DNA of 30,688 nt from Anaerolineae bacterium (GTDB lineage Bacteria; Chloroflexota; Anaerolineae; Aggregatilineales; Phototrophicaceae), in NCBI GenBank assembly GCA_015492875.1, contig WGEI01000449.1:1-30688 (forward strand), read 5' to 3'. The notes under the pieces are model-generated. The model saw only the letters and a program-made list of their open reading frames with translations, made no database searches and was not told the DNA's origin. Shown here piece by piece: positions 3,896 to 20,775 of this stretch; within the stretch, counting starts at the first letter, position 1, and every line of letters starts with the position of its first letter. Position numbers and translations under genes: made by a program.

Positions 3896-3898
3896 CAG

Positions 3899-4810
3899 TT
3901 ACACTCTTTGTAATGAGATGGCAATTTGTGCGGCAACCCGCGCATTATTTTTCAACAGGGCTGTATTGGCGTTACGAGACCGGTTTTCGGTTAATTCGGT
4001 AATACGCGCCAATAAGAAAGGCGTTGTTTCTTTGCCGTGAATACCTTGCTTATCCGCTTCTTTGGCTGCTTGCTGAATCGCTTTTTCAGCAATGTCTTGT
4101 GGCAAGGCGTCTTTTTCCGGCACGGGCACGGTGAATAAAATGCCATGGGATGCGCCTATTTTCTCGCCAGCCTTGATTATTTGGGCGGCCTCTTCTGGCG
4201 TATTCACTCTTGCATCAACAGGCAATCCGCTATCACGGGTGAAAAATGCGGGAAGGCCATCGGTTTGATAGCCAATAACGGGGACGCCCTGCGTTTCTAG
4301 AACTTCTAATGTCAACGGTAAATCCAAGATATATTTTGCGCCAGAGCACACAACTGCTATAGGTGTACGCCCTAATTCAATTAAATCAGCTGATACATCA
4401 AACGGATGCCCCCGATGCACCCCGCCAATGCCGCCAGTAGCAAATACGCGAATGCCGGCCATATGGGCAATGATCATCGTTCCCGCCACGGTTGTAGCGC
4501 CGTTTTCTTTACGCCCTATCACAATAGGTAAATCTCGACGGCTACATTTGCGAATTTTTTCACTAGGCTGTTGCCCCAACCATTCAATTTGCGCTTGGCT
4601 TAAACCGATGGTGATTTGGCCATTGAGTATGGCAATTGTTGCCGGAATAGCGCCCTCATCACGAATGGCTTGCTCCATAGCTAGCGCGGTTTCCACGTTG
4701 AACGGATACGGCAGCCCGTGCGCGATAACCGTAGATTCTAGCGCCACAACAGGCTTTCCCCTATCTAACGCTTGTTTAACTTCATTTGTATAGTGCAGTT
4801 CAGGGTGCAT
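3899..4810 (-). CDS. psuG: Pseudouridine-5'-phosphate glycosidase
   Basis: Motifs VALESTVIAHGLPYP, KCSRRDLP, ATTVAGTM, FATGGIGGVHRG, DVSADL, GAKYILD, GKETTPFLL. Start placed at ATG 4810 (MHPEL) because of a GGGAGG RBS just upstream; the ORF track start at 4861 runs into the terminator. Confidence 0.95.
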   Translation of the reverse strand: MHPELHYTNEVKQALDRGKPVVALESTVIAHGLPYPFNVETALAMEQAIRDEGAIPATIAILNGQITIGLSQAQIEWLGQQPSEKIRKCSRRDLPIVIGRKENGATTVAGTMIIAHMAGIRVFATGGIGGVHRGHPFDVSADLIELGRTPIAVVCSGAKYILDLPLTLEVLETQGVPVIGYQTDGLPAFFTRDSGLPVDARVNTPEEAAQIIKAGEKIGASHGILFTVPVPEKDALPQDIAEKAIQQAAKEADKQGIHGKETTPFLLARITELTENRSRNANTALLKNNARVAAQIAISLQRV

Positions 4811-4838
4811 AAAACCTCCCATTCTTGAATAGCGCATC

Positions 4839-4847
4839 ATTTTACCA
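4839..4847 (-). promoter_or_regulatory. Extended -10 promoter for psuG-pfkB
   Basis: Minus strand TGgTAAAAT, about 30 nt upstream of the psuG ATG and immediately downstream of the terminator. Confidence 0.5.
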
Positions 4848-4855
4848 CGCTGCCC

Positions 4856-4896
4856 AAACAAAACCGACCCACACCTGTTGGTATGGGCCGGCTTTT
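4856..4896 (-). terminator. Intrinsic terminator of the giant gene
   Basis: Minus strand AAAAGCCGGCCCATACC-AACA-GGTGTGGGTCGGTTTTTGTTT. Fully paired stem (with G-U pairs) on this strand only, followed by a U-tract, 30 nt after the stop at 4928. Confidence 0.8.
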
Positions 4897-4927
4897 GGCA
4901 ATAGAATTGCCGTTCAGGTTCTACGGT

Positions 4928-7900
4928 TTATGGCCACACGTTGATAGCATCAATGGTGAAGTTGCGGCCAGGCTCCTGATTTTCGAAGATGACCAAGTGA
5001 TTGCCTTCACCAAATCCATAGAAGACGATGGGCGTGAAGTAGGTGCGGCGTCCTCGCTGGCTGAAATCGCTAGTCAGTGTCGGTGTAGCAGGCTTATTAT
5101 CCGTTGTATATTGCTCACCACCGCAGTGCATGTAGACGCCTTCTACTAGCACCAAGCAGGCGTTGATATTAGAGCTGCCGCGTGCATCCATTTGCTGGTA
5201 GACGGTTATCGCGTTGCCGCTGACATAGGCTTGCATCACTGCGCCAGCATTGCTAGTTGTATGCTGTATCAGGTTGTATGGTCCGCGTGGCGGAGCTTGC
5301 CGCGATGTCGTGGTTGTCCACAGCTCAAATGGTGCAAAGTCTAGGCCTGCTGTGGTGTCGTCATAGAACCCACCTGTTAGGGTTGTATCGCTTGCGTCAC
5401 CAAAGACCACAATCGCATCAATCCAGAGTGTGCGCCCGCTAGCACCACCTACAGTATCGCCCAGATTGCGAATTTGAACATCGTAGGTGTCCGCTGGTAA
5501 GCCATAGAAGGCGAAACCATATTGTTGCAGCGTGCCGCGCGGCAACAGACGCCCCGGGTTCAAGTCCGTCCAGTTGCTATTGCGAGCGTTGTTGTTTGCA
5601 GAGACCACATCACACCACACATCGCCGGATGCAATGCTGCCGATATAGTTTTGTCCAGAGAAGTAGCCCGGTGTTGTTTGGAAGTCGCTATAAGATGCCG
5701 GGAAGGGATCGCCACCAACCTTACGGTAGCAAACCATGAAGTCTGCACCAGCGCCATCGACACGGGTCAAGATTGACCAACCAGTACCGTTGATAGTGAA
5801 GTCCAGTGTCGCACCAATCTCTTTAGTTTCGGCAGCCAATGCACCATTAGCACGATTATCCTTGCGTGAACACCATTCGGTATTCAGGTCACAATTGCGC
5901 CCTGTGTCAGGATTGAGTGCTGTGCCGCCACTGGCGTTGAAGTTCAGGACGGTATCTGGCAAGAACTCATTGTACAGGCCTTCAGATAGCACATTGTTGG
6001 AGATGACTTGATAGCCATCGATATTGAAGAAGCCCTTGCTCAGTGTTGTCAGAATGATTTTGTGTTGGCCACTGAGGCTGCCGCCTAGCAAGCTTGCTAA
6101 ATCAACCATAACCTGCCCAGATGTCTGCATGGCATCCGTTAACGTGCAGTTGGTTGCGTTGGCAATGCTGAAAGTGCGGGTTGCACGATCCCAGGCGACA
6201 GTGCCGCTTAGATTATCAGCACAGACCAGTAGCCATTGGCTGTTTTGGCGGCTAGTAGATGACGTATCCACCACCACAGTATAGCTTGATACACCACTTG
6301 GAACATTTACGCTGATGACCGCTGTTGGGCCAGCGTAGGTGTTGCGGGCGCGGTTATTATCATCGACCACTGCATAACGGCTTTGGCCACTATCTTTCTT
6401 AGCTGCGCGACCAGTAATTTGACTCCAGCGATTTTCTGGCAACACTTGCAAGAATGATGTGCCACTGCCATCAACTGCATCTTCATTGTAGAAGCCCGGC
6501 GCAGAATCTGGTGGCGCGGCGTCATCAAAGACCTGCACGAAGTCGATGCTCAACCGTCCGACAGCGTAGCGGTTCAGTCGCGGGTCATCTTGGTTGCGTC
6601 CCAGTACCGACACGCCGTCTTCTACATCGCGGATACGGACGTAGTAAGTGCCATTGGGCAGACCAGCGGCGACTAAACGGGTTACGGTCGGCGTTGGCCG
6701 TGCTTCTTCGTTTTGGTAGATGATACAGGTTTGTGCATTGCCTGTTTCGCTGGTTTCATCAAACGTCGCGTCATCATCAACACAAATTTCTGTATCGCCA
6801 CCATTGCGGTCGATGGGCATACCGACCATTGCGCCTGTACCTTGGAAGGCGAAGGTTACGGATGCCCCCGGTGTGCTACTTTGCATGATACTGCCGCCGT
6901 AGTAGTTACGAGTATGGAACACTTGCGCCCAGCTGCCACCTTCAGCCACTGCGAACCCATCAACATAGAAAAGGGTTGCGCCATTGGTGGCCACAATTTG
7001 CAGTGTGGCGTTGCTGATAGTGCTGCTTGGCGTGTATTCAAACCGTAGCTGTTGCCATTTATTGACAATACCGTTGGTTGAGGTTGCCGACGCACCCCCA
7101 ATCGGTGAGCCACTATTTGCCAATTGGGCAGTAACCTGTGTGCCGCTAGAGATGTAAACCCAGCCGGTCACGGTGTAGGTTTTGCCCGCCTCTAAGGTGA
7201 AGGAGGCGCTTTCAATGCCCTGTAGCGCAGTGCTTACGTCCACTTTGCGTGAGTAGCGACCGATGTATTTGGGGTTAGTCCAACGGCTATTGACTGTCGC
7301 ACCTAAGCTATTCCACAGCTCGTCGCCTTCCATACCACCATTTGGCAGTACATTGTTGTAAGCTGCGTTGTATTGGATGCCCGGTGTGAACTCATCATGT
7401 AGCCCTGCACTCAGCACGCCGGCAACTGCTGGCTCAACCGCGTCGAACATCACCGCACCATTTGTGAGGGCTGTTACGGTGACGATATGCGGTCCCGTGC
7501 CAGCGCCTGTGTTGTAATGCAGTGTGAAGCCCGCTTGATTGCCAACGCCATTGTTCTCGATGATGGAGCAGGTGCGGTCAGTGCGGTCAGCTTCGCTGAT
7601 AGCGCAGACAAGCAACGGCGCATAGTTGCGGCTTGATGCGCGGTAGATGGTCACGGCATCCGCGTTATTGGTGCGGAAGATGACGCTAGAGCCAGAGCTA
7701 GTTGTGCGGCGGATTTGATCGATATTCTGGCCAGAGTGACGGCTTGCTGCCCGCCCGCTCAAGGTTGACCAATTGTCGCCAACGTACATGAAGTTGTTAT
7801 CAACATTACGGTTGTTGTAGTTGCCTTCATAGCGTTGGCCTGGTGTTAGTTGGTTCAGTGTTGTTGCGTTCAGGTCGCTGCCGAACACCTCAACATAGTC

Positions 7901-10900
7901 GAAGTCCATCTTTAGTGCGCCTGCAGCATGTGGCGCGGTGATATAGTCTTCGTTCAACAGTTGCACCACAGCGGTGTACGTTGTTGCTGGGTTCAAGCCC
8001 AAGATTGTTGCTGCGAAGTCATAGTTCGCCCGCGATTCTGTATTGAACACCTGGCAGATGCCGTTGCTGATAACCGTACTCGCATCTGTTGTGGCTGTAT
8101 CGTCCACACAGACACGGATGAGGTCAGCGTTACGGTCGGCGCGTAGGTGTGCGGCAAAACCGCTACCTTGCAATTGGAAGAGCACACCGCCGTTGATGTC
8201 CTTTGTATTGAACACTGTGCCGCCATAAGCGCCGCGATAAGCTATTTCGGTGTTCGTTGTGGCGCTTAGGTTGCCGTCGAATGCCATGATATTGGCATGG
8301 TTGTTTTGATAAATGCCTTCGGGTAATGGGTCATTGCTATCGACTAAGCGAACGACATCCACAAGGAGTTTACGCCCGTCAGTGTTTTCAATCGTTACCC
8401 AGCAGGCATTGGCCACACAATCCACAGCGCCCGTATCGATAGCAGCACTCTGGTTGTAATCAGCTGCGACGCCAGTTTGGTTGTTAACCGTGACGCATTG
8501 GCTGTTATCGATAGCGTCTTTGGTTGTGTCTGTACCAATAACTCCGAAGCATACCCGCGCTTGCCCAAACTGCTTGTTTACCTGACGGATGTACTCGAAA
8601 TCAGGCTCACCAGTGAACTCGAAGTAAGCGACTGAACCGCGCATATTGCCCTGATGCTGGCTGCCATTGAAGGACAACGGACGCCGCTCAACAACCTCTG
8701 TCAGACTGCCGAAGGGGAAGTATTGCAAACGTGGGTCAGTGTTGTCAACTGGTTCAACCGCATTGATGCGTAGTGTGCTATCTGCGCCAAGAACCTCCAC
8801 GCGGTCAACGTTTAACACTTTGCTGCCATCAGTATTGGTGATGCGCACCGTGTAAGAGCCGTTGTTGCCCGCTGCGTCGCCATGTAAGCCCATGTATGTC
8901 AGGCCAACTTGTTGCAGCGCAGTAGATGACGCGCTGTTGTTGACGGTTTCATTGATATCCGCACAGTCATTATTGCCTTGTGCGCTTACACAGACTGTGT
9001 AACTGCCCGATGTTGTGCTGCTTTCCACCAGCACCACGCTGAAGCCAATACCTTCCATATCGAATTCAACATAGCCACTTGGCGAAATCTGTTGCACCAG
9101 CTTATTCGATGCCTGCGTCATGCTCACCTGAGTGGCGTTATTGAACGTCAGGCTGGCATCATCTTGCTGGTAAATACCTTCGGCCAGAACACCTGCTTCG
9201 AGTATTTGAACGGCATCGAAGTAAATGCGTCCGCCGTGCTTCAGATTAGTGATGCTGATGGCATAGTGGTCAGTGGGGTTATTGGCGATGCTACCGGCTG
9301 GAACAGCGATTTGCTGCTTACCGGCTTTATCCGCCAAGTTGTGCGTTGCACAAGTGCGCTCTTGAACCACATTGGCGTTATCAATTTGCGTCCAGCAAAC
9401 CTCTACGGTATCGCTTGTTGAGGCTGTGCCGTAGTGCAACACAATACCCGCGATTTCTTTCGTGCCATCGCCGGCAACAAACGAAATGCTAGCGCCATAG
9501 TCATCGGTTAGGGCATAGGTTTGGTTCAGGTAACCGCGCGCCCGTGTGCCGCTGGTGAATGACCAACTGTTGTTATCTGGTCCGTAGGTCAGGATAAGGG
9601 CGTTATTGGCATCTCGCTGCTGGTCATCATACAGGCTGCCAAGCACCGATAGCGCGCCATAGACTTGCACCGCATCCACAACTAGCTTAGCCGATGTTTG
9701 GTTGGTGATGGTGACATCGTAGTTGCCTTCCGGCAGGCCGGAGAATGTGATGCCAGATGTGCCAGATACTGTCCGCGTATTATTGGTGCTCACCGTTTGT
9801 GTCGTGCTGAAGCAGCAATCTGTGCCACTCGTTTGGGTGATTTGAACTTGTAGGTTGCCACCCGTTTTGCCGAACTCGGTCACGAAGGTGAAACCTGTCG
9901 CGTTTTGCAGGCTGAATTGCACCGAAGCACCAGCAGTTGTATTGACCAATGCTTGGCCACCGCTGTAAGTTCTACTTGATACAGTATCCCATGTGCCTGT
10001 GTTGCTCAGCTCAAAGATGTCGTTATTGCCATCGGTCGTCAGGCCGTTGCCCACCGATTCTTCAAAGTAACCAGCGGCTAAGGCAGTGCCATGTATGACC
10101 TGAACACGGTCAATCGGTAGTACACCTGGTGTCAGTGCCCGTACTGTAACAACGTGGTTGCCTACGACGCCCAGCGCTGGAATATCGCTCTTGCTCACCA
10201 CCACCTGCGATTGTGTCCCCAAGTCAGTCAGGAAGTCCGCACAATTATCTGCTGCATCGTTGTAGTCATAGCCTGTGCCGTTGTAACTCATAGCACCGCT
10301 AGTATCGTCCACACAAACCTGTACTGTTTTTGTGTTTGTACGGCTCGCTGGCCCGGTATGCAGTACCAGAATGACGCCATCAGTTGAGGGGACATTCACC
10401 TGCATGACCGCTGTTGGACCGGCATAGGTGCGGATAGCTGCGCCACGGCTATCACGTAGGCTGAAGAACGAGCTTTCCGAGTAGTTGCGGGCAAAGCGCC
10501 CTTCAACCGTGCCCCATAGCTCGGCTGGCAAGCCCTGGAGATAGCGATTGCCGCTTCCATCCACTGCTGTGTCTTCATAAGTGCCCGGCGCGCTGATGGC
10601 TGGGGGTAGGGCGCTGTTATACACCCGTACATAGTCAATTGCGATTTGGCCGATGCTACGGCGGTTGTTGCGTGCCGCCACGGTGTTGTTACGCACGAGG
10701 CTGCTATAACCATTTTCCACGTCGCGGATGACAATGGTATAGGTGTTACTTGGCAATGGCCCCACAAAGCGGCTAGTTGTATAGCTTGGCCGCGCCGACT
10801 CGTTATCGTAAGTTGCGCAGTTGGCGTTTTGTAGCCCGTTAGCGCCATAGTCGACCGAGTCAGTGTAGCAGATTTCGACCTCGCCGCCGATATTCTCGGT

Positions 10901-13900
10901 AATCATACCGATTTCGGCTGCGGTGCCGGTGAACTCGAAGCGTACTTCTGCGCCGTAGCTATAGCTGGTCATCACACTGCCACCATAGTAGCTGCGGGTG
11001 TTGACACGTTGTTGCCATGTGCCGCTTTCGATGATGTGAACGTCGTCCACAGTGAAGGTGACTACGCCACCGCTGGCTGTGAACTGAATTTGCGCAGTGC
11101 CGCTGATGTCTGATGCGGCGCGCACAACCAGTGTCTGCCATTTACCGGTGATGGTGTTGTCGGCAGTAGCATCGTAGACGGTTGTGCCGCTCACGCTCAT
11201 CTGCACTGTGCCAACGGCGCCTGAGGCGATATTCACACGGGCGATGACCGTGTACATCTTGCCATTTTGCAGTTGGAAGTCTTCGCTTTGGATGCCCTGT
11301 CCAGCAGCTGTTGCAACAACTTGTCGTCCGCGAGCGCCTTCATAACGAAGCCCGCTATAGACGTTACTGGTGGCTGGCAACCCGCCGATCTCACTCCAGT
11401 GGCCATCAACTTCCATCTTGCCATTGCGCACAAGGTCATTGCTGCCAGTCTGGTAGATGATAGCGGGGTTGGTGCTATCATGCTGGCCTTCGGTTAGCGG
11501 GCTGCTGCTATCCACAACTTCCACGCTATCCAATCCAGCGCTGCCCGTTGTCAATAAGGTGATGCTGACGATGTGCGGGCCAGTGTTGCCGCTCTCATTG
11601 AACTTGAACGAGACCGGTTGCGCAGTGGCCGTGCCGCCATCGTTATTGATTACCTGGCAACGTTGCTGGCTCAGGTCTACTGATAGCGGCCCTCCGCTGA
11701 CCGGCGCCGCACAGATGAGGAACGGCGTGTAAGCGCGGCGTGTATTGCGGTTGATGATGATGGCATCGCCGCCATCAGTGCGGAAGGCGACCGTTGCGCC
11801 CGGTGCGCCACCACGCCCCGGCGTATCAACCTTGCCATTGAGTGCGCCGCGTTGGTTCGCTGTTGACCAGTTCCCGAAGTATAGGAAGTTCTTATCAGCA
11901 TCGCGGTTGGTGTAGTTGAAGTCATATGCCATGCCAGTGCTCAAGATATTGAGGTTGCTGGTATCGTTCCAGTTCGATGTGTTGAGCCATGGTGTGTCGT
12001 ATACACGAACACCATCGAACCGCATCGTGACCGGCGCTTTGGCGCCCGTATGCGCTTTAGGCGCGTAGTCATCATCGAGCATCTGTACGACAACAGTGAA
12101 GTTGCCATATTCAAATGGCCCGACGAAGCGGCGGCCTTGAGAGACTAATCGTGCTGATTCATTGTTTTCGATATGGCAAGCGCCGCTATTCAACACTGTG
12201 TTGACATCGCTTGCTTGCGCGCCATCGGAGAGCAAATCGCCACTGTAAACACAGATGAGGACAGCGTCTGCTTTGTTGTTGAACTCGAACAGGATTTCCG
12301 CTGCCGTCCCTTGGAAGCCGAAGATGATGCCATCGCCCACCGTTTGGGTTTCCATCATCCCCTTTCCAGAGGCGCGAGTAGCGAAACGCGATTCCACTTG
12401 ACTGAAGGCATCACCGCCGATGGTGTAGGTTGGGCTAGGTGTGCCAAAGCCAGTTGTGCCGAAGAAGTAAATATCCTCAGAGAACTCCTCGAACAAACCT
12501 GTTGGTAAGGCTGCGCTAGTATCCTGAACGGCGACGCGGTCAACGCTGAATTTCTCGTTAGTCAGGCTGAAGATTTCAACCACATGATTGCCACTACTCG
12601 CCCAAGCGCTACGGAACATGCTCTCGGTGAAGACCATGCTGCCATAAACAGGCTGCATGATTGTGTCGTTAACTGGCGAGAATGTACCGTCTGCCTGTAC
12701 CTGTTGGTATTGGTATGTGCCGCTGATTGTCTCTGGGTTTTGGCGCATATTAACGACCACACAGTTGCCTGCTTGTGTGCTGCTATCTACTGCGCGGTCA
12801 ACACAGACCATCAGGTTCTGGCTATCCAAACGGAAGTTGGATTGGTGATACACATAGAACGTATCAGCAGCGTTGGGTATTTCGAATGTCACGGCTGGAC
12901 CAGCGGCGATGACACCACGATTGAGCGCTGCAACCGTGTCATATGGCGCACGCCCAGCGAAGTTCAACGCCCAGCTATCGTCCAAACCGTTGTTGAAGAT
13001 GAACTTATCTAGTTCTGCAACATCCGTTTCGCCAAAGCCCATCGGTTGCAGTGGGTCATTGAATACTGTGATGGAATCGATGAACATCCGCTCGCCAGTT
13101 GGCACGCTGAGCACATCAATTGTCACTGTATAGGTTATCGGGTCTCCGTTGCTATCGAAGGCTTGTAGGCCATTGAATGGGCGGAAGACCTTGTAAGTGG
13201 TTGCTTTTGCTGCGCCCAGTGCGTTGTCATAGCGTTGGCATATGTCGACGCCGGTTCCCGTTACACAAACGTTGTAAGTTGCGCCCGTGCCATCCAGCCC
13301 GATGTCTTCCAGAATTGTGCCAATAGCGAAGCCAGTTGCGCCCGTAATCTGGAAGGTTAGGTCGGCATTGGCGTCGGTTGTTGTGCGGGCTAAGCCACCG
13401 GTGGCTTTTGCATCGGTGAGTTCTGTCCAGTTACCTGCTGCGGTAAACATATCGATGAGTTCGCCTGATGATACATCGTAGAAGCCCGGTGCTAGCGGGT
13501 CTGCGTTTGCAGATGCCGATGGAATGATACTGAACGCATCAACTTGGAGTTTAGGGCCGTTAGCGCCAGCTGTGCCGTTCGGGTTGTTGGTGATGACAAC
13601 TGTATGCACTGTTACATCGTTGAGGCCGTTACAGGTTACGGTGTAGCCCAATACCGTGCGTTCACCAGTTGAAGACTGTGTTGCACCATTGGTCACGCGC
13701 GAGTTGATGAGCACGTTGCCATTAGTTGCTGCATAGGTAGAGCAGGTGACAGGGAGGGCATCTATTGTCAATGTGGCTGTGGATTCGCCATTAGCGCCAA
13801 CTGTCCAGTTCGGGATATTGCTTCCACCGCCGCTATCTCGGATGTCGAGTTGCCATTCCCCAGCTCCAGATGGCAAGCCTTCCATATAGAGGGTGAAGCC

Positions 13901-16900
13901 TGCGCCAATGAAGCGGAAGGTGGCTTGGTCACCGTTGATACGTGTTTCATGCAAGGTGTTGTTGATGCCCGTATCTGAGTAAATCGGCTTCCAGCCCGTG
14001 CCACTATAGCTGAAGGCGAAGCTGCTGTCATCATGCAAGCCTTCATCTGGAATGTCGCTCACGATGCGCACACGGACGTACATATCAATCGTTGCGCCCG
14101 CATTGCCATTGGCTGGGTTGCTATCGGTGACGGTGTAATGCAACACTGTCATGCCAGCGGCATCGGCGACAGGAGTGAGGCTGACCTCGCCAGTGGCTGT
14201 GTTGACAGCACTTCCCAGATTAGTGAATAGGGTGGCGGGGTCATCGCCTGCGTTACCTGCGCCCAATTCATTATCCGCCCAGTCTAGTTGACTGTATGTG
14301 AATGGGAACTGGCGCTTATCTGTTGCACTGCTATCGGATAGGAAGAAGTTATCCGTTGTGAAGAATGGCCGTAGATTGAATTGAATGGTTGTGTTCATGA
14401 TGCCTGCAGCGCTGAATTCATTACTGCTCACACCATCCCACACTGGCGAACTCAATGTTGTGTCATCGTCTGTGGTTGATGGACGAATGACGATTGTCAA
14501 AGTGCCCTGTGCTAATGCGCCAATGCTATCGATAGCTTGATAGTCGAAGGTAACATCTGGTGGCACGCCAGTGGTATCTGCCCAACCGACATTGCTCGCA
14601 CCAGTATCTGTGAAGAAGTGCGCAGGTGGGCAGTAGTAGGCGGTTGAACCGATGATGATGACGCCATTGGAGTTGCTATAGTTGACACCTGTAGGTGTGC
14701 CCGGTGGCAGCGGGCAATCCACGCCATAGTTATCAGGGGATACTGCCAATGAGAATGTCAATGAGCCAAAGCCACCTTCAACATGCTGCCCTAGTTCATG
14801 TGATACATAAGGCACATTGTCTTCTATGATGTCTGGCAGTACGACATTATCCTCACCACTCTTGATACGGAGTGGCACAAACTCAAATGCGCCGATGTCA
14901 ATATCGAGATTGGTGTCAAGGTCAGAGTCTTGTTTACGTACATTATCGGCATAGTCACGGCTATAGTCTAATCCCGCACTTATCAGCGCATCATAAACAG
15001 CGGTGTTCCCCGTCTCAACACCTTCATTCAAGAATGTTGGACTCAAACGGCGTAATTGGTAGTAAAGCGGGTCTGTCAAGGCATTCAGGCTCAGCAGTGG
15101 ACCAACGAAGCGGTTATCGTTGGGGTCTGTACCGGGTTCTGGGTCGACATTAACGATATTACCATTCAGACCATTATTGCTACCGTCAGCAATGGTTGTA
15201 TGGCACACGCCACCTTCACCTGTCGTGAAGAGTCCATCCCAATCCCAAATCCAGTTATTTGTTGCGCCTTGATTGTTGGTGCCGTTGAGGTTTTGGCATA
15301 GATTATCTGGCACATCTCGTACAAGCACGAGACCGCCGGGAATTTGATTGTCTGTCAGTAAGTTATTGTGGAATTCCCACGGCGCATTGTTGATACTGCC
15401 GTAATTGTTGCTGTTGCCCGTCGTGGAATCGTCAGCATCGCCGCGTAATATCACTGCGCCGAACTCAACTCCAGAAGCACTTAGATTATTGTGTGCGAGG
15501 GTATTGTTCACAAAATGGAACGCCCGCACAAAATACAAGCTGAATAATGGACCTGGTGTCCCCGCATCAATGGCTGTTGTGTTGTTTAGGATGACATTGC
15601 CCACAACTCGCACCGGTGTTGTATCAGCTGCGCTACCGGTTGAGATACGAATGAGCGAGTCGATATTGTTCCCAACGAAAGCGTTATTCACAACATCAAC
15701 TGCACTGTTCTCAAGGGCTAATAAACCTTTGAAGAACAAGCTGCCGCTGATGATTGGGCGAGAGGAATTTGTATGCGTGTTGTTGCTAAAGGTGTTGTTC
15801 CGTATCTCGACCGGATTAGCTGAGACACCGGAGTTAGTCACCTGGATGGTTGGCGAATTAAGCGTTGAGCCAGTTAAGCCATTAAATGTGTTATATGAGA
15901 TGATGACACCATCGCTGCTATTGATGACGCTAATCATCGGGTAGATAACATCGTTCATGCTAGAAAAGTTGTGATACATCAACGAGGCATCATCTGAAGC
16001 ATCAACCAGAATGGGGCGTGCTGTCGGAACGAAGAAATCTAGCCGTTGGGGAATGCGGAATGTAAACCCGTGGAAACCAAAGGCAGTTGTCCCGTTTTTG
16101 ATATACACGCCAGCAACGTCGCTATCAAGATATGTATTCATCACCGGCATGATGCTATCGGCGTTGTCTGCGCTAGTGACGGAATCATAAGAGTAGACAT
16201 TCACGGCGGGTGCGCCATTGAAATAAAGCGGTGTAGCCCACTCTCCAGGCCCGACGATGATACAATCGCCCGCACTCGCGTTATTAACCGCTTGCCCAAT
16301 GCTGGTGTATGGTGTAGCTTCCGAGCCGTTGGGCACGCTGTTGCCCAATGTGCCCAAGTCTTGTGAGACGTAGATGAAGCCCGTGCACGCGGCTGGGGCG
16401 TTATCTGGCACAGCGGGATGGCTAATCTGGCTTAGGTCGTACGTCGGCGAGCCAAGCACAGCAAAGCCCGCGCCATAAACCATATCAAAGCCATCAGCAC
16501 TGCTGCCAAATGGCATATCGAACGAGTGCCCCATCAAGTAATCTTCAATAGCATCGACTGCGGCAGAGCCACCAGTGCTGAACTGCGGCATATTGCTGTT
16601 GTTTTGCTTCATCAGGGCGATAATGCCGCCGATATGTGCTGCCGCCGCGCTTGTACCATTGAAGCCACCCACACAGTTAGAGGTGGGGCTACCGGTGCTT
16701 ACAGTAGAGACATAGGTCGGCCCAACGATTTCTGGTTTGACTTCGTTTTGGCTGTAGGGCGGGGTATCAGTTGGTGCGCTACCGCCTGCGCCAAATACGG
16801 GGCCGCGAGAGCTGTATTCATAGACTGGGTAATTATCATCTGGGCTGGCACAAACCGCACCAACCGTGATAGCTTCACGGGAATCAGCTGGGCGGCCTAA

Positions 16901-19864
16901 TGTGCCTGCTGTTGTGAGTTCAGTGAAAGTGCCTCCACTTGGCGCGTTGATTTTGCCGCTGCCGAGTAATTGCACTTGTATCACCCCAGCATTGCTGCCA
17001 GAAATTGACAAGGTCAAATCGCAGAAGCCATCACCTTGTACCGTACAGCTACCTACAGTGAGCTGACCAACTGGATTACCAATGCGGGCAGGTTTATTGA
17101 CTGTGGTCATGCCAGGTCCGCTTAAAGAAACGGTGTAGTCGTTGCTGCCGCCCCAATCATTCCAACTCAGGTTAACGACATCGCCTTGTAGTGCGTCAAT
17201 GTTAAATGTGACCGTGCCGCTGGTGTAGTTAATCGTACGGTAGCGGAGGCCATCCGTATCGTTGTTGCCGTTGTTGCCCGCCGCGACGACGACTGCAATA
17301 CCGGCTTGCCGTGCTTGAGCGATTTCATCGTATAGGTTTTTGTTGCCGCCGGATGGGACGTAGCCTAGTGTACCATCGCCAGGACTGGCAACGACACCCA
17401 AGTCCATAGCGATGATGATGACATCGTAACCTGTCGTGCGCGCCGCATTGACGGCATTGGCCATTTCAACGGTCGCATCAATAATGTCACCATCGTTATC
17501 ATCTGCTTTGAAAAGCCGCACATTAGCATTGGGGGCAATATCGCAAACTACTTCGGCTACTGTGAGGCCGTGTGTGGTATCGCCACTTTGCGGTGTGCCA
17601 TAGACCAATGTGGCGCTATTGACACAACTTTGCTCGGCTGTCAATGTCACAGGATTGCCAAAGCCACGATCGATAATGGCAATATCAACCCCCGTGCCAG
17701 TGAAGCCCCCTAGATGCCATTCATAGACGTTGAGCATATCGAAGGCTTCTGTAGCCGCTGACCCTGCCGGGGCTTCTAATCCACTTGTAGAGGCGGCGCG
17801 CGCTGGTAAGCGGACTGCACCAACTTCGGCTGTGTTGACTAGCGGCACAAATCCCGGAATGGGGATACGGGCAACAATACGGCGCTCGTTAGTATCAAGC
17901 ACCACGCCGCCAGCCGCTTCGGCAATGGCCGCTACTGCTTCGGTTGTGTAGCCATTGGCCGGGTAGATAACCACGCGCACGCGCCCGGTTTCATCAATAT
18001 CTAACCCGTAGCTCTCCGCGATTTCAAAAGCAGTCGCTGGGTCTGATTGGAGGAACTCTGTCACAATAGCCGTGAGCGAGCCATCAAGCTTGACTTCAGT
18101 CTCTGGCGTCAAGCCCATGGGGATGGCCGCCGCGCTTGGTTCAGGTGTGGCTTCAGGCTCTGTTGCGGGCGTGCTGGCCAATTCTGTAATAGCAATATCA
18201 TCCAGCATGATGTTGGATGCGCTATTGGCCACAAAACTTATATCGCCAGCGCTATCATTCAACCCTTCAACAATGAGTTCATCAACACCATTCACATTGA
18301 GCATGGCGTTACCGCCGTTAACGGTGAAGGTAATGGCGTGCCAGCTATTCAAAGCGTGCGCAATGCCGCTTTCGGCCAGAAGTTCGTTCGTCTCGCCCAA
18401 AGCATAGAGGGCGCTGTTATCACTCTCAATTGTCAGCAGGTATCCGCTGCCATCGTTCAGGCGGAAGAAGATACCCAGCCCACTGTCTTCGCCATTGGCC
18501 GCATCAGTGAGGATGTTCAGGCGCGCTGTTAAGGTGAAGTTGCTCAGGCTGAGGGGTTCGTTAAGCCCAAGCGTTGAGTTCGCCGCCATCAGAAGGGCGA
18601 AATTGCTTTCACCGCTATCAACAACATTCCCGCCAGCACCAAGCGCCCAATCCGCGTTCTCATCGTCAAAGTTGATACCAACCTGAACGCCTGTTGCCGT
18701 ATCCTCAGCTGGCATCTCAGCTACAGGGGCTTCAGCGGTGGTTTCTGGTTCAACAGTTGTTTCTGGCTGAATATCAGACTGTTCGGTCGGTTCTGCTGTT
18801 GGCTCAACTGTTGGTTCGGGTGTGGTGATAACTTGCGGCTCATCCAGTTTTTGAATGATGATGTTATCAATATCCACCGCACCGCTGTTGACCGCATCTG
18901 TCGTAAATGAGAAGCTGCCGCTTGTAGCAGTTTCAGTATCTGTGTAGTTAATGCGTGGCGCACCGTCGACGCTTACAGTGATGACATTACCAAGCGCCTG
19001 CACGCTGACCGTATGCCATTCAGGTGCTGCTGTCGGGTCTGGTGTGACTTCTGGCGAAGTCGATGGAGCGGGGGAGTTCGCCAAAACAGTTTCGCCCCGT
19101 ACCAAGCTCACATTGCCCTGTGCATCCAACACAACGGCAAAAGCGGCATTGCTGGCGCGGGCGTCAAGATGTGCTGCCGCACCATTAGCCACTCGTACTT
19201 GAGCCGTCATGGTAAAGTGTGGCCAGTCTAAGCTTAATGCTGCTCGTTGGCTGGGCTGGTCAGTTGTCAGGTAATAATTACCGCTCTCTTCAACAACTGC
19301 CCAACCATCTGTTGCTAACCAGCCGTCACTGTTGCCATCTTGGAAGTCATCGCTGAAAAGCGTAACAACCGGGGTCTCGCTTGGCGCCGGCGTTGTGGGA
19401 ACTGGCTCAGTTGTCGTTTCCGGTTCAACAGTTGGCTCAGTTGTTGTTTCTGGCTCAATCGTTGGCTCTGCGGTGCTCTCCGCTGGTGACGTAGGTTCTG
19501 CCGTGCTTTCTGGCGGCGGCTCTGTTGCAGGTGGAGTAGTTGGCTCTTGTGTAGTCTCCGGCGGAGCAGTTGGAGGAAGCGTATCAGGTTCTTCCGTCGC
19601 TTCTGGAAGCGTTGTTGGAGGAATGGGCGTCGCCGTTGGTGGCGCTTCTTCTGGCGTAGGCGTCGCCGTTGGCGGCAATGGCGTTGCCGTTGGTATAACG
19701 GGCGTCGCCGTAGCGGTTTCAGTAGCAGGTGCTGGCTCTTCTGTGCCTTCTTGCGCCGATACAGCCATACTACCACTAGGGATAATGGCTAGCACAAGGG
19801 CAAGAATGCCCAGCAACCATACAAAAGTAATCGAGTAAGTGTTACGCCGGTGATGAGCTTTCAT
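4928..19864 (-). CDS. Giant (4,978 aa) secreted multidomain S8 serine protease / adhesin-like surface protein
   Basis: Single uninterrupted ORF with a GGAGG RBS. Sec-type signal peptide (basic N-terminus, hydrophobic core, V-S-A|Q at about aa 37). Contains a subtilisin triad, a beta-helix and repeated beta-sandwich modules (see sub-features). Confidence 0.9.
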   Translation of the reverse strand: MKAHHRRNTYSITFVWLLGILALVLAIIPSGSMAVSAQEGTEEPAPATETATATPVIPTATPLPPTATPTPEEAPPTATPIPPTTLPEATEEPDTLPPTAPPETTQEPTTPPATEPPPESTAEPTSPAESTAEPTIEPETTTEPTVEPETTTEPVPTTPAPSETPVVTLFSDDFQDGNSDGWLATDGWAVVEESGNYYLTTDQPSQRAALSLDWPHFTMTAQVRVANGAAAHLDARASNAAFAVVLDAQGNVSLVRGETVLANSPAPSTSPEVTPDPTAAPEWHTVSVQALGNVITVSVDGAPRINYTDTETATSGSFSFTTDAVNSGAVDIDNIIIQKLDEPQVITTPEPTVEPTAEPTEQSDIQPETTVEPETTAEAPVAEMPAEDTATGVQVGINFDDENADWALGAGGNVVDSGESNFALLMAANSTLGLNEPLSLSNFTLTARLNILTDAANGEDSGLGIFFRLNDGSGYLLTIESDNSALYALGETNELLAESGIAHALNSWHAITFTVNGGNAMLNVNGVDELIVEGLNDSAGDISFVANSASNIMLDDIAITELASTPATEPEATPEPSAAAIPMGLTPETEVKLDGSLTAIVTEFLQSDPATAFEIAESYGLDIDETGRVRVVIYPANGYTTEAVAAIAEAAGGVVLDTNERRIVARIPIPGFVPLVNTAEVGAVRLPARAASTSGLEAPAGSAATEAFDMLNVYEWHLGGFTGTGVDIAIIDRGFGNPVTLTAEQSCVNSATLVYGTPQSGDTTHGLTVAEVVCDIAPNANVRLFKADDNDGDIIDATVEMANAVNAARTTGYDVIIIAMDLGVVASPGDGTLGYVPSGGNKNLYDEIAQARQAGIAVVVAAGNNGNNDTDGLRYRTINYTSGTVTFNIDALQGDVVNLSWNDWGGSNDYTVSLSGPGMTTVNKPARIGNPVGQLTVGSCTVQGDGFCDLTLSISGSNAGVIQVQLLGSGKINAPSGGTFTELTTAGTLGRPADSREAITVGAVCASPDDNYPVYEYSSRGPVFGAGGSAPTDTPPYSQNEVKPEIVGPTYVSTVSTGSPTSNCVGGFNGTSAAAAHIGGIIALMKQNNSNMPQFSTGGSAAVDAIEDYLMGHSFDMPFGSSADGFDMVYGAGFAVLGSPTYDLSQISHPAVPDNAPAACTGFIYVSQDLGTLGNSVPNGSEATPYTSIGQAVNNASAGDCIIVGPGEWATPLYFNGAPAVNVYSYDSVTSADNADSIMPVMNTYLDSDVAGVYIKNGTTAFGFHGFTFRIPQRLDFFVPTARPILVDASDDASLMYHNFSSMNDVIYPMISVINSSDGVIISYNTFNGLTGSTLNSPTIQVTNSGVSANPVEIRNNTFSNNTHTNSSRPIISGSLFFKGLLALENSAVDVVNNAFVGNNIDSLIRISTGSAADTTPVRVVGNVILNNTTAIDAGTPGPLFSLYFVRAFHFVNNTLAHNNLSASGVEFGAVILRGDADDSTTGNSNNYGSINNAPWEFHNNLLTDNQIPGGLVLVRDVPDNLCQNLNGTNNQGATNNWIWDWDGLFTTGEGGVCHTTIADGSNNGLNGNIVNVDPEPGTDPNDNRFVGPLLSLNALTDPLYYQLRRLSPTFLNEGVETGNTAVYDALISAGLDYSRDYADNVRKQDSDLDTNLDIDIGAFEFVPLRIKSGEDNVVLPDIIEDNVPYVSHELGQHVEGGFGSLTFSLAVSPDNYGVDCPLPPGTPTGVNYSNSNGVIIIGSTAYYCPPAHFFTDTGASNVGWADTTGVPPDVTFDYQAIDSIGALAQGTLTIVIRPSTTDDDTTLSSPVWDGVSSNEFSAAGIMNTTIQFNLRPFFTTDNFFLSDSSATDKRQFPFTYSQLDWADNELGAGNAGDDPATLFTNLGSAVNTATGEVSLTPVADAAGMTVLHYTVTDSNPANGNAGATIDMYVRVRIVSDIPDEGLHDDSSFAFSYSGTGWKPIYSDTGINNTLHETRINGDQATFRFIGAGFTLYMEGLPSGAGEWQLDIRDSGGGSNIPNWTVGANGESTATLTIDALPVTCSTYAATNGNVLINSRVTNGATQSSTGERTVLGYTVTCNGLNDVTVHTVVITNNPNGTAGANGPKLQVDAFSIIPSASANADPLAPGFYDVSSGELIDMFTAAGNWTELTDAKATGGLARTTTDANADLTFQITGATGFAIGTILEDIGLDGTGATYNVCVTGTGVDICQRYDNALGAAKATTYKVFRPFNGLQAFDSNGDPITYTVTIDVLSVPTGERMFIDSITVFNDPLQPMGFGETDVAELDKFIFNNGLDDSWALNFAGRAPYDTVAALNRGVIAAGPAVTFEIPNAADTFYVYHQSNFRLDSQNLMVCVDRAVDSSTQAGNCVVVNMRQNPETISGTYQYQQVQADGTFSPVNDTIMQPVYGSMVFTESMFRSAWASSGNHVVEIFSLTNEKFSVDRVAVQDTSAALPTGLFEEFSEDIYFFGTTGFGTPSPTYTIGGDAFSQVESRFATRASGKGMMETQTVGDGIIFGFQGTAAEILFEFNNKADAVLICVYSGDLLSDGAQASDVNTVLNSGACHIENNESARLVSQGRRFVGPFEYGNFTVVVQMLDDDYAPKAHTGAKAPVTMRFDGVRVYDTPWLNTSNWNDTSNLNILSTGMAYDFNYTNRDADKNFLYFGNWSTANQRGALNGKVDTPGRGGAPGATVAFRTDGGDAIIINRNTRRAYTPFLICAAPVSGGPLSVDLSQQRCQVINNDGGTATAQPVSFKFNESGNTGPHIVSITLLTTGSAGLDSVEVVDSSSPLTEGQHDSTNPAIIYQTGSNDLVRNGKMEVDGHWSEIGGLPATSNVYSGLRYEGARGRQVVATAAGQGIQSEDFQLQNGKMYTVIARVNIASGAVGTVQMSVSGTTVYDATADNTITGKWQTLVVRAASDISGTAQIQFTASGGVVTFTVDDVHIIESGTWQQRVNTRSYYGGSVMTSYSYGAEVRFEFTGTAAEIGMITENIGGEVEICYTDSVDYGANGLQNANCATYDNESARPSYTTSRFVGPLPSNTYTIVIRDVENGYSSLVRNNTVAARNNRRSIGQIAIDYVRVYNSALPPAISAPGTYEDTAVDGSGNRYLQGLPAELWGTVEGRFARNYSESSFFSLRDSRGAAIRTYAGPTAVMQVNVPSTDGVILVLHTGPASRTNTKTVQVCVDDTSGAMSYNGTGYDYNDAADNCADFLTDLGTQSQVVVSKSDIPALGVVGNHVVTVRALTPGVLPIDRVQVIHGTALAAGYFEESVGNGLTTDGNNDIFELSNTGTWDTVSSRTYSGGQALVNTTAGASVQFSLQNATGFTFVTEFGKTGGNLQVQITQTSGTDCCFSTTQTVSTNNTRTVSGTSGITFSGLPEGNYDVTITNQTSAKLVVDAVQVYGALSVLGSLYDDQQRDANNALILTYGPDNNSWSFTSGTRARGYLNQTYALTDDYGASISFVAGDGTKEIAGIVLHYGTASTSDTVEVCWTQIDNANVVQERTCATHNLADKAGKQQIAVPAGSIANNPTDHYAISITNLKHGGRIYFDAVQILEAGVLAEGIYQQDDASLTFNNATQVSMTQASNKLVQQISPSGYVEFDMEGIGFSVVLVESSTTSGSYTVCVSAQGNNDCADINETVNNSASSTALQQVGLTYMGLHGDAAGNNGSYTVRITNTDGSKVLNVDRVEVLGADSTLRINAVEPVDNTDPRLQYFPFGSLTEVVERRPLSFNGSQHQGNMRGSVAYFEFTGEPDFEYIRQVNKQFGQARVCFGVIGTDTTKDAIDNSQCVTVNNQTGVAADYNQSAAIDTGAVDCVANACWVTIENTDGRKLLVDVVRLVDSNDPLPEGIYQNNHANIMAFDGNLSATTNTEIAYRGAYGGTVFNTKDINGGVLFQLQGSGFAAHLRADRNADLIRVCVDDTATTDASTVISNGICQVFNTESRANYDFAATILGLNPATTYTAVVQLLNEDYITAPHAAGALKMDFDYVEVFGSDLNATTLNQLTPGQRYEGNYNNRNVDNNFMYVGDNWSTLSGRAASRHSGQNIDQIRRTTSSGSSVIFRTNNADAVTIYRASSRNYAPLLVCAISEADRTDRTCSIIENNGVGNQAGFTLHYNTGAGTGPHIVTVTALTNGAVMFDAVEPAVAGVLSAGLHDEFTPGIQYNAAYNNVLPNGGMEGDELWNSLGATVNSRWTNPKYIGRYSRKVDVSTALQGIESASFTLEAGKTYTVTGWVYISSGTQVTAQLANSGSPIGGASATSTNGIVNKWQQLRFEYTPSSTISNATLQIVATNGATLFYVDGFAVAEGGSWAQVFHTRNYYGGSIMQSSTPGASVTFAFQGTGAMVGMPIDRNGGDTEICVDDDATFDETSETGNAQTCIIYQNEEARPTPTVTRLVAAGLPNGTYYVRIRDVEDGVSVLGRNQDDPRLNRYAVGRLSIDFVQVFDDAAPPDSAPGFYNEDAVDGSGTSFLQVLPENRWSQITGRAAKKDSGQSRYAVVDDNNRARNTYAGPTAVISVNVPSGVSSYTVVVDTSSTSRQNSQWLLVCADNLSGTVAWDRATRTFSIANATNCTLTDAMQTSGQVMVDLASLLGGSLSGQHKIILTTLSKGFFNIDGYQVISNNVLSEGLYNEFLPDTVLNFNASGGTALNPDTGRNCDLNTEWCSRKDNRANGALAAETKEIGATLDFTINGTGWSILTRVDGAGADFMVCYRKVGGDPFPASYSDFQTTPGYFSGQNYIGSIASGDVWCDVVSANNNARNSNWTDLNPGRLLPRGTLQQYGFAFYGLPADTYDVQIRNLGDTVGGASGRTLWIDAIVVFGDASDTTLTGGFYDDTTAGLDFAPFELWTTTTSRQAPPRGPYNLIQHTTSNAGAVMQAYVSGNAITVYQQMDARGSSNINACLVLVEGVYMHCGGEQYTTDNKPATPTLTSDFSQRGRRTYFTPIVFYGFGEGNHLVIFENQEPGRNFTIDAINVWP
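4931..14055 (-). repeat. About 17 tandem jelly-roll (galactose-binding-like) modules within the giant protein
   Basis: Recurrent module start L-x-x-G-x-(Y/F/H)-(D/E/N/Q) near 14050, 13490, 13040, 12505, 11940, 11495, 10590, 10080, 9640, 9185, 8750, 8325, 7845, 7410, 6500, 5985 and 5378. Internal motif (A/V)xFxFxG(T/A)G(F/W); module end (I/V)D(A/R/Y)(V/I)xV. Confidence 0.7.
14060..14860 (-). other. Ig/cadherin-like domains within the giant protein
   Basis: IIEDN...TFDYQAIDSIGALAQGTLTIVIRP and VSLTPVADAAGMTVLHYTVTD...ATIDMYVRV resemble bacterial cadherin/Big-type strands. Confidence 0.5.
14870..16390 (-). other. Right-handed parallel beta-helix (pectin-lyase-like fold) within the giant protein
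   Basis: Typical cap FIYVS...GSEATPYTSIGQAVNNASAGDCIIVGPGEW. Asn-rich coils (IISYNTF, IRNNTFSNN, VVNNAFVGN, FVNNTLAHN, FHNNLL). Terminal DIDIGAFEF resembles the choice-of-anchor Q ending. Confidence 0.75.
16460..18100 (-). other. Prodomain plus subtilisin-family (S8) peptidase domain within the giant protein
   Basis: Asp in VDIAIIDRGF (~17670), His in DTTHGLTVA (~17571), oxyanion Asn in VAAGN (~17275), Ser in FNGTSAAAAH (~16650). Also SSRGP, KPEIVGP and YGAG. Prodomain-like segment KLDGSL...GRVRVVI...AEVGAVRLP lies upstream. Confidence 0.92.
18180..19365 (-). other. Two concanavalin/DUF1080-like beta-sandwich domains separated by a PTE linker
   Basis: LFSDDFQDGNSDGW...EWHTVSVQALGNVITVSVDG...DIDNIII and INFDD...W...SWHAITFTVNGGNAMLNVNG...MLDDIAI. 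Confidence 0.6.
19370..19750 (-). repeat. Pro/Thr/Glu-rich low-complexity stalk (PTATP and EPTVEPETTT repeats)
   Basis: GGCGTCGCCGTTGG-like units at 19626, 19659, 19680 and 19701. A 30-nt tandem unit at 19404-19463. A similar linker lies at about 18690-18845. Confidence 0.85.
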
Positions 19865-20069
19865 GATATGAACCCCTCCAAATTAACTGTCCGGCTGGTG
19901 ATAAGCAGCAAACCACGACACAGATAATTGACCGGTCGCGGTGGCCGTGCACTTGCACAATGTTGCGATGTAGATAATTGCTTTACTCTCAAATCACTAT
20001 ACACCATCTCAAATGAATTAGTGTTAAGCTACAAGGGATACCGCCGAGAATAGGAAAAAGATACGGGAT

Positions 20070-20100
20070 GAGAAAATAAAAAACCGGTAAAAACCGGTTA
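20070..20100 (-). terminator. Intrinsic terminator after the DUF2344 gene
   Basis: Minus strand TAACCGGT-TTTT-ACCGGTT followed by TTTTATTTTC. The 7-bp stem begins inside the stop codon. Confidence 0.6.
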
Positions 20101-20775
20101 ACTTTTCGTTTCTTCTGCAAGGTGGAGGCGGTATCTGTGGATGGTGAAGTAGCTTTCTGCTAGTCCTAAAAGCTCCAACAGTTTTTCTGGTCGCATATTC
20201 CCCACATTACCCACCGAAAGATGCGCAATGAGCGTCTGCTCATCTTCCATGCGTAACTCATGGATAAGGGGGCGCAAATCCACTTGAATACGTTTTTCTC
20301 GGCGTTTACGCTTCTTTATCCGCTCAACGATGATCGTGTCCTGCGCTAGCATGTCGCTGATTTTTTCTTTTAGCACTTCACTATCAATTGGCTCTTTGAA
20401 TTCGATGCGATATTCTGCGCTACGTACTAAGGTTTGTAAAGCTGCCCCATCAATGGGGACTGATTCGATACGGTAAATTTCCAGACCGCTGGGGCTAGTG
20501 GCGAGCAGGCGCTCTTTCAACCCAGCAAGCTCAATGGGTTCTTTAAGCGCAACATCGATGATTTCACATTCACTAGTGATACCCAATGGCAGGGCAGAGG
20601 CAAGTTGAATTCTGGGACGTGTGTTGAATCCCTCCGTATACAGTAGTGGGAGGTTGGCGCGGCGCAAAACACGCTCCCATGTTTTTGCGATGTCGAGATT
20701 GCCCGTATACTTCATAGGGCCGCTTTTGCCAAAGTGTATGCGTAGCCGCTGTTTAACCGGTGATATATGTGACAT
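20098..20775 (-). CDS. Radical SAM-associated protein, TIGR03936/DUF2344-like
   Basis: RLRIHFGKSGPMKYTGNLDIAKTWERVLRRANLPLLYTEGFNTRPRIQLASALPLGITSECE...VDLRP...RPE matches the DUF2344 consensus pattern. Confidence 0.88.
   Translation of the reverse strand: MSHISPVKQRLRIHFGKSGPMKYTGNLDIAKTWERVLRRANLPLLYTEGFNTRPRIQLASALPLGITSECEIIDVALKEPIELAGLKERLLATSPSGLEIYRIESVPIDGAALQTLVRSAEYRIEFKEPIDSEVLKEKISDMLAQDTIIVERIKKRKRREKRIQVDLRPLIHELRMEDEQTLIAHLSVGNVGNMRPEKLLELLGLAESYFTIHRYRLHLAEETKS

Follow-up and report, generated by a model that had tools for sequence, protein, structure and literature searches.

The 30,688-nucleotide stretch of DNA analyzed here, hereafter the window, is the entire 30.7-kb contig WGEI01000449.1 of a metagenome-assembled genome (MAG; 3.4 Mb, 598 contigs, 86% complete) of an Anaerolineae bacterium (Chloroflexota phylum), probably Aggregatilineales-like, from the community of a hydrothermal vent. 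Its minus strand carries a gene for a protein of nearly 5,000 amino acids (aa), the giant, in which an S8 (subtilisin-type) protease domain is followed by a beta-helix, immunoglobulin (Ig)/cadherin-like domains and a long tail of jelly-rolls resembling carbohydrate-binding modules (CBMs). An initial annotation of the window, made from the letters alone, had proposed one open reading frame (ORF) of about 5,000 aa, and the gene was found intact as a single uninterrupted frame from ATG to TAA, with no stop within 14.9 kb (Table 1). The terminators that it had placed on both sides were also located, as a hairpin with a T-run upstream and a hairpin with a U-run downstream, the latter being missed by a consensus terminator scan. 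The encoded protein contains 58 Lys residues (1.2%) versus 335 Asp, more than 37% of it is Thr, Gly, Ala, and Asn, and its 50 Cys residues fall into 25 local pairs.

The giant gene is intact and under purifying selection. One hydrothermal-vent metagenome study contains the window DNA in three of its runs. The best of these shows an even word depth of 10-18x along the gene, with no joints, and a second sample contains a strain variant whose unitigs tile the giant gene; 33 of the 40 listed strain single-nucleotide polymorphisms (SNPs) are synonymous, as are most of those in the tail. A chimeric assembly or a decaying pseudogene might be suspected because the gene is internally repetitive and was recovered from short reads in a fragmented MAG; with a frame open from end to end and the tiling by a second sample, we give that explanation almost no weight. 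An assembly artefact is very unlikely because of the even depth, the synonymous strain SNPs, and the recurrence of the same domain order in about 50 clusters of relatives and in the closed isolate genome CP146238.1.

Table 1. Features of the giant gene and its product.
Feature	Residues	Position	Strand	Basis or remark
Whole gene	1-4978	4928..19864	-	4,978 codons + stop; product 526 kDa, pI 4.3
Shine-Dalgarno GGAGG		19875..19879	-	10 nt 5' of ATG, read directly
Intrinsic-terminator-like hairpin + U-run		4857..4896	-	directly 3' of the giant's stop codon; dG -40.6 kcal/mol, z -4.5
Terminator-like hairpin + T-run		20082..20099	-	3' of the upstream DUF2344 gene
Signal peptide	1-37	19754..19864	-	predicted signal peptidase I cut VSA/QE, between A37 and Q38
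Pro/Thr/Glu-rich low-complexity linker	38-165	19370..19753	-	29% Pro, 28% Thr, 18% Glu
ConA-like lectin domain 1 (DUF1080/3keto-disac_hyd, LamG)	166-345	18830..19369	-	Pfam PF06439
ConA-like lectin domain 2 (Laminin_G_3-like)	395-565	18170..18682	-	Pfam and HHalign
Subtilase prodomain	575-694	17783..18142	-	AlphaFold2 model; Foldseek matches to pro-subtilisin/CspB
S8 catalytic domain	701-1160	16385..17764	-	Pfam, family profile, AlphaFold2, Foldseek
Catalytic codon, Asp	732	17669-17671	-	
Catalytic codon, His	765	17570-17572	-	
Catalytic codon, oxyanion Asn	864	17273-17275	-	
Catalytic codon, Ser	1072	16649-16651	-	
Nine-strand jelly-roll inside S8	875-982	16919..17242	-	DSSP of model; between N864 and S1072
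Right-handed parallel beta-helix	1163-1640	14945..16378	-	PGEY cap and Asn ladder
Ig/cadherin-like region (Big_9/Cadherin_5-like)	1641-1937	14054..14944	-	Pfam, weak here (E 2e-4)
19 homologous CBM-like jelly-rolls, M1-M19	1938-4978	4931..14053	-	boundary motifs, HHalign, fold
Five-module block M4-M8	2447-3256	10097..12526	-	first copy of internal duplication
Five-module block M13-M17	3841-4620	6005..8344	-	second copy, 30-43% identity to M4-M8
Terminal module M19	4821-4978	4931..5404	-	best-conserved part of the family

Domain architecture and conserved residues of the giant

The sole hydrophobic segment of the giant covers residues 8-38 on a Kyte-Doolittle profile, and the A-Q-E/D motif at the end of the signal peptide is conserved across the family, in agreement with the signal peptide and the Pro/Thr/Glu-rich stalk of the initial annotation. 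Because this signal peptidase-like motif is conserved, cleavage between A37 and Q38, as predicted from the sequence, is favored over retention of the segment as an anchor. In the alternative, which we regard as unlikely, the segment would be an uncleaved signal-anchor and the Pro/Thr/Glu stretch would span the wall, making the giant a membrane-tethered cell-envelope proteinase; this would concern location only and is compatible with either a protease or a scaffold function. The hydrophobic core of about 17 residues is indeed long for a signal peptide and is directly followed by the 128-aa linker. However, a small-x-Ala followed by Gln-Glu/Asp after a Pro/Gly break is the pattern of a signal peptidase I site and occurs family-wide, and with the prodomain autocleaved, an N-terminal anchor would hold the lectin head alone unless the prodomain stays bound. 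Both lectin-like sandwiches that had been proposed were recovered: the first matches PF06439/LamG at residues 178-320 above the cut-off (27.9 versus 26.8 bits), the second matches Laminin_G_3 at about 436-528 just under it (27.2 versus 27.6 bits, E 5e-6), and HHalign relates the two domains to each other at 100% probability.

The S8 domain contains the complete catalytic set in canonical order, with D732 in IIDRG, H765 in THG, the oxyanion N864 in AAGNN, and S1072 in GTSAAAAH; the initial annotation had read the same set and had placed the catalytic serine near position 16650. Pfam PF00082 scores 44.7 bits against a cut-off of 21.8, and a family profile searched against the PDB matched subtilisin E/BPN' at an E-value of about 1e-27, classical subtilisins being the best matches by sequence. 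The family profile was needed, as a single-sequence phmmer search of the PDB missed the beta-helix altogether and hit the S8 region only with a spurious TAL-effector repeat. Per-domain structure prediction, which had been suggested as a check, gave an AlphaFold2 model of residues 570-1700 with a mean predicted local distance difference test (pLDDT) of 86.2 and a predicted template-modeling score (pTM) of 0.86; it has a subtilisin fold preceded by the proposed prodomain. The best PDB matches of the S8 model with Foldseek are CspA, CspC, and CspB (E 2e-14 to 7e-11), followed by unprocessed pro-subtilisins and Tk-SP, and the cell-envelope proteinase structures 5xya and 7edd are also among its matches.

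The D/H/N/S set is intact in 47 of the 50 S8 domains of giant proteins, which argues from sequence conservation for selection on catalysis. Three giant lineages lack an intact triad, P0039/L013 (A-T-D-A), P0070 (S-T-D-S), and P0072 (A-D-N-S), and all have full-length ORFs. The first of these (L013:17-13288, contig DAOTTW010000034.1) encodes a 4,424-aa giant pseudoprotease in which D is replaced by A, H by T, N by D, and S by A; its prodomain junction is altered and its ORF is otherwise intact. An R-A-x-S-T motif at residues ~688-693, after the last strand of the prodomain, is a candidate autocleavage site. Members with an intact triad keep it, whereas most of the dead-triad sequences that were inspected, L013 among them, have it in decayed form, the conservation pattern expected of such a site. 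Autocleavage at this junction is therefore plausible, and the self-processing put forward in the initial annotation may be retained at that strength.

The beta-helix was assigned from the strand pattern of the model, from ESM Atlas matches to NosD, Beta_helix, and DUF1565, and from BFVD matches to right-handed beta-helix proteins, in line with the initial assignment. Among 44 relatives, the positions at least 80% conserved are those of the Asn ladder, Gly, Phe, two Cys, and the N-terminal PGEY cap; no cluster of conserved Asp, Glu, Lys, Arg, or His and no conserved catalytic or Ca-binding groove residues were found in these relatives. This region is also the least conserved segment of the giant, at 0.22 bits per residue. 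Right-handed parallel beta-helices are the fold of pectate-lyase-like enzymes, and phage tail proteins that have a pectin-lyase fold or are assigned to the pectate-lyase superfamily are among the BFVD matches, so that the beta-helix might be a polysaccharide lyase or hydrolase working beside the protease. We consider such a bifunctional enzyme highly improbable: the lack of a conserved acidic or basic cluster and the low conservation both weigh against polysaccharide cleavage, no Pfam lyase or hydrolase family was matched, and the groove residues that are conserved in the pectate-lyase-like enzymes were not found in the helix of the giant family. The polysaccharide-cleaving activity entertained initially thus has no conserved acid or base residue from which to build an active site, and the beta-helix is probably structural. 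The Ig/cadherin-like domains noted after it are weak in the giant itself and are better seen across the family, where Big_9 is matched in 15 of 32 members and Cadherin_5 in 11 of 32.

The remainder of the protein consists of 19 modules of 134-200 aa, which typically start with G-x-Y-D/E-D/E and end with (I/V/L/F)-D-x-(I/V)-x-(V/I). The jelly-roll tail is as first described; the count, initially about 17, is 19 when the boundary motifs are used. Direct comparison resolves type A modules (M2, 4, 7, 9, 11, 13, 16, and 18), type B modules (M5, 8, 14, and 17), a pair related to CBM_4_9 (M6 and M15), and singletons (M1, 3, 10, 12, and 19), and profile-profile comparison with HHalign connects all 19 modules to one another, the CBM_4_9 pair included, with 83-100% probability via M2, M9, M10, M13, and M19. 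CBM_4_9 (PF02018) is matched by the whole protein at 39.8 bits against a cut-off of 25.9, with the best stretch at residues 4171-4292 in M15; M6 alone stays below the cut-off at 21.7 bits. Every module except M6 and M15 has a local Cys pair, with two pairs in each of M12 and M18; the two Cys of M9 are adjacent (3350/3351), and the pairs of M13, M14, and M16-M19 are invariant in an alignment of the C-terminal modules. The duplication of a five-module block was found by chunked BLAST, whole-protein self-BLAST having returned the identity match only.

A structure model of the last seven modules (residues 3841-4978; pLDDT 85.4) has a pTM of 0.78, which suggests that the modules are packed in a fixed arrangement. 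The model matches tandem CBM22, CBM16, and a porphyran-binding CBM with template-modeling (TM) scores (TMt) of 0.66-0.77, a resemblance consistent with glycan binding by the tail. Cry protoxins, reelin repeats, and GH101 are further matches, with a low TM over the whole chain. A toxin identity, considered because Cry protoxins and Vip3 were top fold matches, was rejected: the whole-chain TM score is about 0.1, the match being to the CBM-like jelly-roll domains only, and no pore-forming domain appears in the Pfam matches or the top fold matches. M19 was likewise considered as a shared C-terminal sorting or anchoring tag and was set aside, because in four genomes searched it occurs once per genome, on the giant alone.

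The protein ends at ...IDAINVWP, and motif, hydrophobicity, and Pfam checks of the giant gave no LPXTG, lipobox, RTX motif (GGxGxD), C-terminal hydrophobic stretch, SLH, or autotransporter domain, in accord with the initial reading of an end with no transmembrane helix, sorting motif, or barrel. The sole match to Por_Secre_tail is internal and at chance level (E 0.034).

A family of collinear giants at a conserved locus

The homolog search proposed in the initial annotation was run exhaustively with residues 570-1700 and gave 1,026 matches, 75 of them at E < 1e-30. These contain about 50 representative clusters of collinear giants of 3,000-5,371 aa, which share the order of parts, the signal peptide ending AQ(E/D), and a terminal module end ...ENRxH...(I/V)DA(I/V)xV. 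The family order, signal peptide, LamG, prodomain, S8, beta-helix, Ig, and module tail, is that of the giant. The number of modules varies between members; the giant of the window has 19, among them the duplicated five-module block.

Every one of the 35 genome loci that carry a name is assigned to Anaerolineae, Aggregatilineales, or Chloroflexota, among them the isolate genome CP146238.1 (Aggregatilineales bacterium SYSU G02658, with the ortholog at about 883,015-898,100) and 'Anaerolineae bacterium CFX8'. When the order was sampled, 22 of the 79 genomes from the taxonomic family to which the window belongs had a match, against none of the 121 drawn from seven other families. An apparent absence from a genome of the same genus (G001) is an assembly artefact, the two ends of the gene lying on two short contig ends. 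No paralog was found in the window's own genome. The gene order DUF2344 - giant - PsuG (pseudouridine glycosidase) recurs in other genera of the taxonomic family: PsuG adjoins the giant in seven orthologous loci and DUF2344 in four of them, and in most such loci a PfkB kinase, a secreted protein of unknown function, and a radical-SAM gene lie beyond PsuG. The shared order supports vertical inheritance of the giant gene, as judged from these loci. L056 and L057, two small closed genomes from this taxonomic family, have no giant at that junction, and DUF2344 there directly adjoins PsuG. The 'stand-alone' protein of the initial annotation is therefore not unique; it is one ortholog of a family of about 50 representative clusters that occupies the same locus in the relatives examined.

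A related family of ~2,000-aa proteins (P0007, P0012, P0013, P0015, P0018, P0020, P0021, P0023, and P0024; P0018 has 1,373 aa) also consists of signal-peptide proteins with an S8 domain, most of them with a prodomain and a beta-helix, and all but P0015 with a jelly-roll-like D-N/x-(I/V)-S end strand. Their triad is dead (D-R-N-Q/E), with His replaced by Arg and Ser by Gln or Glu except in P0020 (D-R-D-S). No copy of this family was found in the window's genome. Many proteins of 500-1,100 aa (within P0081-P0153) match the prodomain and the S8 domain with its jelly-roll alone (query residues ~590-1140), from which it follows that this S8 design exists as stand-alone proteins too, in taxa that were not sampled.

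The closest structural analogues of the S8 core, not named in the initial annotation, are the Csp proteases of clostridial spores, which comprise CspB and the pseudoproteases CspA and CspC (PDB 4i0w, 6mw4, and 9pr8/9pr9). In CspB, the subtilase is interrupted by a ~130-aa nine-strand jelly-roll that rigidifies the enzyme, and the prodomain remains bound and blocks the active site (PMC3567191). The giant has the same combination of a prodomain and a jelly-roll-interrupted subtilase, the inserts in both being nine-stranded and ~110-130 aa long, and both families include members with a dead triad. In contrast, Csp proteins are ~550 aa long and activate SleC, whereas the giant has a signal peptide, 4,978 aa, a huge tail, and a Chloroflexota host; sequence identity is only 14-18%, and the CspB_prodomain family PF18425 was not matched in the giant. 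The setting of spore germination is not shared either, the named relatives all being Anaerolineae or Chloroflexota and the neighboring genes housekeeping. On the evidence of the model, the resemblance to Csp is architectural and is not proof of family membership.

Gram-positive cell-envelope proteinases break down protein at the cell surface. Those of the lactocepin PrtP and streptococcal C5a peptidase/SpyCEP type (5xya and 7edd), together with pyrolysin-type subtilases that are extended far at the C-terminus, resemble the giant in being exported S8 enzymes with the protease near the N-terminus of a long stalk. Unlike the PrtP/ScpA type, the giant has no PA-domain insert, no Fn-type A/B domains, and no LPXTG or other anchor, and its tail is 2-3 times longer and made of CBM-like jelly-rolls and the beta-helix. 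The tail modules share the jelly-roll fold of tandem CBMs (CBM4/9, CBM22, and CBM16, e.g., Xyn10C CBM22-1-CBM22-2, 4xup; and 8xmz), and a profile search matched the porphyran-binding CBM 8xmz at E 4e-7. Known CBM arrays have 2-4 modules on glycoside hydrolases, whereas the giant has 19 behind a protease. Apart from M6 and M15, these modules fall outside any named family, and the same 17 carry a local Cys pair. The hallmarks of type I secretion RTX adhesins, type V autotransporters, and type IX cargo, i.e., RTX nonapeptides, a C-terminal beta-barrel, and a C-terminal Por_Secre_tail, were not found in the giant.

Taken singly, the parts of the giant are all of known kinds, and the cell-envelope proteinases come close in concept to a giant exported subtilase. 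What appears to be uncharacterized, in the papers and databases searched, is the combination of a Csp-like S8 core with a beta-helix, Ig-like domains, and 19 CBM-like modules, most with a Cys pair, together with the lack of any known anchor and the restriction to one lineage at one locus. The initial annotation had not recognized the architecture from any characterized protein; our literature search found no paper on this architecture or family, and public records name its members 'hypothetical protein'.

Interpretation of the giant as a protease, a scaffold, or both

Sediments, vents, sludge, and anammox granules harbor abundant Anaerolineae, which are believed to feed on polymers and cell debris within aggregates; to our knowledge, their envelope and extracellular machinery have hardly been studied. 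An extracellular location of the giant is suggested by the N-terminal hydrophobic segment with its AQE end, the Cys pairs, and the acidic pI. With somewhat better than even confidence, we read the giant as a Sec-exported, disulfide-rich, self-processing protease that would be held in a glycan matrix by its CBM-like tail for extracellular protein breakdown. The initial annotation is supported in describing the giant as a secreted S8 protease of many domains, whose lectin- and CBM-like tail is very long and in which no anchor can be recognized.

According to this reading, the giant would be exported by Sec and its signal peptide removed between A37 and Q38. The prodomain would then fold the Csp-like S8 domain, and the enzyme would cut itself at the R-A-x-S-T junction near residue 693. 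By analogy with CspB, the prodomain and the two leading lectin domains may remain non-covalently bound. The active protease would sit at the tip of an elongated and mostly rigid arm composed of the beta-helix, the Ig-like domains, and the 19 CBM-like jelly-rolls, and this arm may bind glycans, either those of the cell's own envelope or sheath or the polysaccharides of the surrounding biofilm and detritus. The protease would thereby be kept near the cell, digesting matrix-bound protein for a peptide-scavenging heterotroph.

Several points weigh against this interpretation. The three lineages without a triad keep the giant ORF, so that proteolysis cannot be the sole selected function. Among the 19 modules, just M6 and M15 can be tied to a named CBM family. 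Neither an anchor nor a partner was identified in the giant, which bears on whether it is attached to the cell or freely released. Finally, the Pro/Thr/Glu stretch resembles the wall-spanning regions of Gram-positive surface proteins, and its position right after the signal would suit a wall-spanning stalk if the signal were uncleaved.

A different function, which we hold to be possible and the less probable of the two, is that of a scaffold with a structural or adhesive role (such as a sheath, surface layer, matrix fiber, or adhesin for cell-cell or cell-substrate contact) in filamentous, aggregate-forming Anaerolineae, in which the S8 domain would serve self-maturation or would be latent, locked by its prodomain as in the Csp proteases. 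This is consistent with the independence of the three triad-less lineages, whose intact ORFs encode 3,000-4,400 aa, and with the dead triad of the related ~2,000-aa family. About 60% of the giant is module tail, which is also under purifying selection, M19 is the best-conserved part of the family, and the pTM of the seven-module model would fit fixed packing between modules; furthermore, an inhibitory prodomain stays in place in the closest S8 structures, those of Csp. Giant genes are a frequent feature of Anaerolineae and commonly code for surface proteins (PMC10608941), which would also suit a scaffold. However, retention of the triad and the oxyanion Asn in 47 of 50 giants speaks for selection on catalysis, and no self-assembly, S-layer, SLH, or anchor motif was found in the giant. 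Moreover, roughly two in three of the genomes sampled from the window's taxonomic family, complete ones included, gave no match, which implies that the giant is not an essential envelope component of the group.

A third possibility joins the two functions and seems to us distinctly doubtful. The giants might be the building block of an extracellular sheath, fiber, or matrix, laid down as ~0.5-MDa subunits through the rigid CBM-like array, with the bound prodomain and lectin head holding a Csp-like latent protease inactive until it is released on a glycan or protein cue. Were this so, the giant would be a self-processing, signal-gated structural protein without a characterized counterpart.

Whether as the matrix-held protease that we favor or as a scaffold, a single-copy gene for a protein of ~0.5 MDa, kept at one locus across other genera, is a large investment and offers a handle on how these filaments feed or stick. 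The giant also extends the Csp-type subtilase design, with its central jelly-roll and possibly retained prodomain, beyond clostridial spores, and it contributes 17 CBM-like modules that lie outside any named domain-catalog family. The ortholog in an isolate with a closed genome makes experiments feasible.

Neighboring genes in the window

The identified neighbors of the giant are all housekeeping genes, encoding a radical-SAM protein, a PfkB kinase, PsuG, DUF2344, SRAP, and FtsK, as well as an S1-domain protein, GNAT, a LiaF-like protein, and a sigma-70 factor. No secretion gene is among the identified neighbors in the window, as the initial annotation had stated. The radical-SAM gene (Radical_SAM_N2; 3-1751, minus strand) and the DUF2344 gene (20098-20775, minus strand) are 18 kb apart in the window, with the giant, PsuG, PfkB, and a 371-aa ORF between them; in L056 and L057, PsuG alone lies between the two. 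The longest ORF for PsuG (3899-4861, minus strand) starts with a TTG at 4861 and overlaps the terminator hairpin of the giant gene; its true start is probably further downstream, and Pfam and tblastn matches start at residues 9-27.

Two further ORFs in the window have no Pfam match. The 371-aa ORF (1853-2968, plus strand) has an N-terminal signal-like segment and a WD-repeat-like motif seen by eye, and it is kept near the giant locus in L011, L014, L015, and L016 at 33-50% identity. The other (26145-28088, minus strand) encodes 647 aa with a multi-pass hydrophobic N-terminal half, and it adjoins FtsK in L055 and L056 too, at 47-50% identity.

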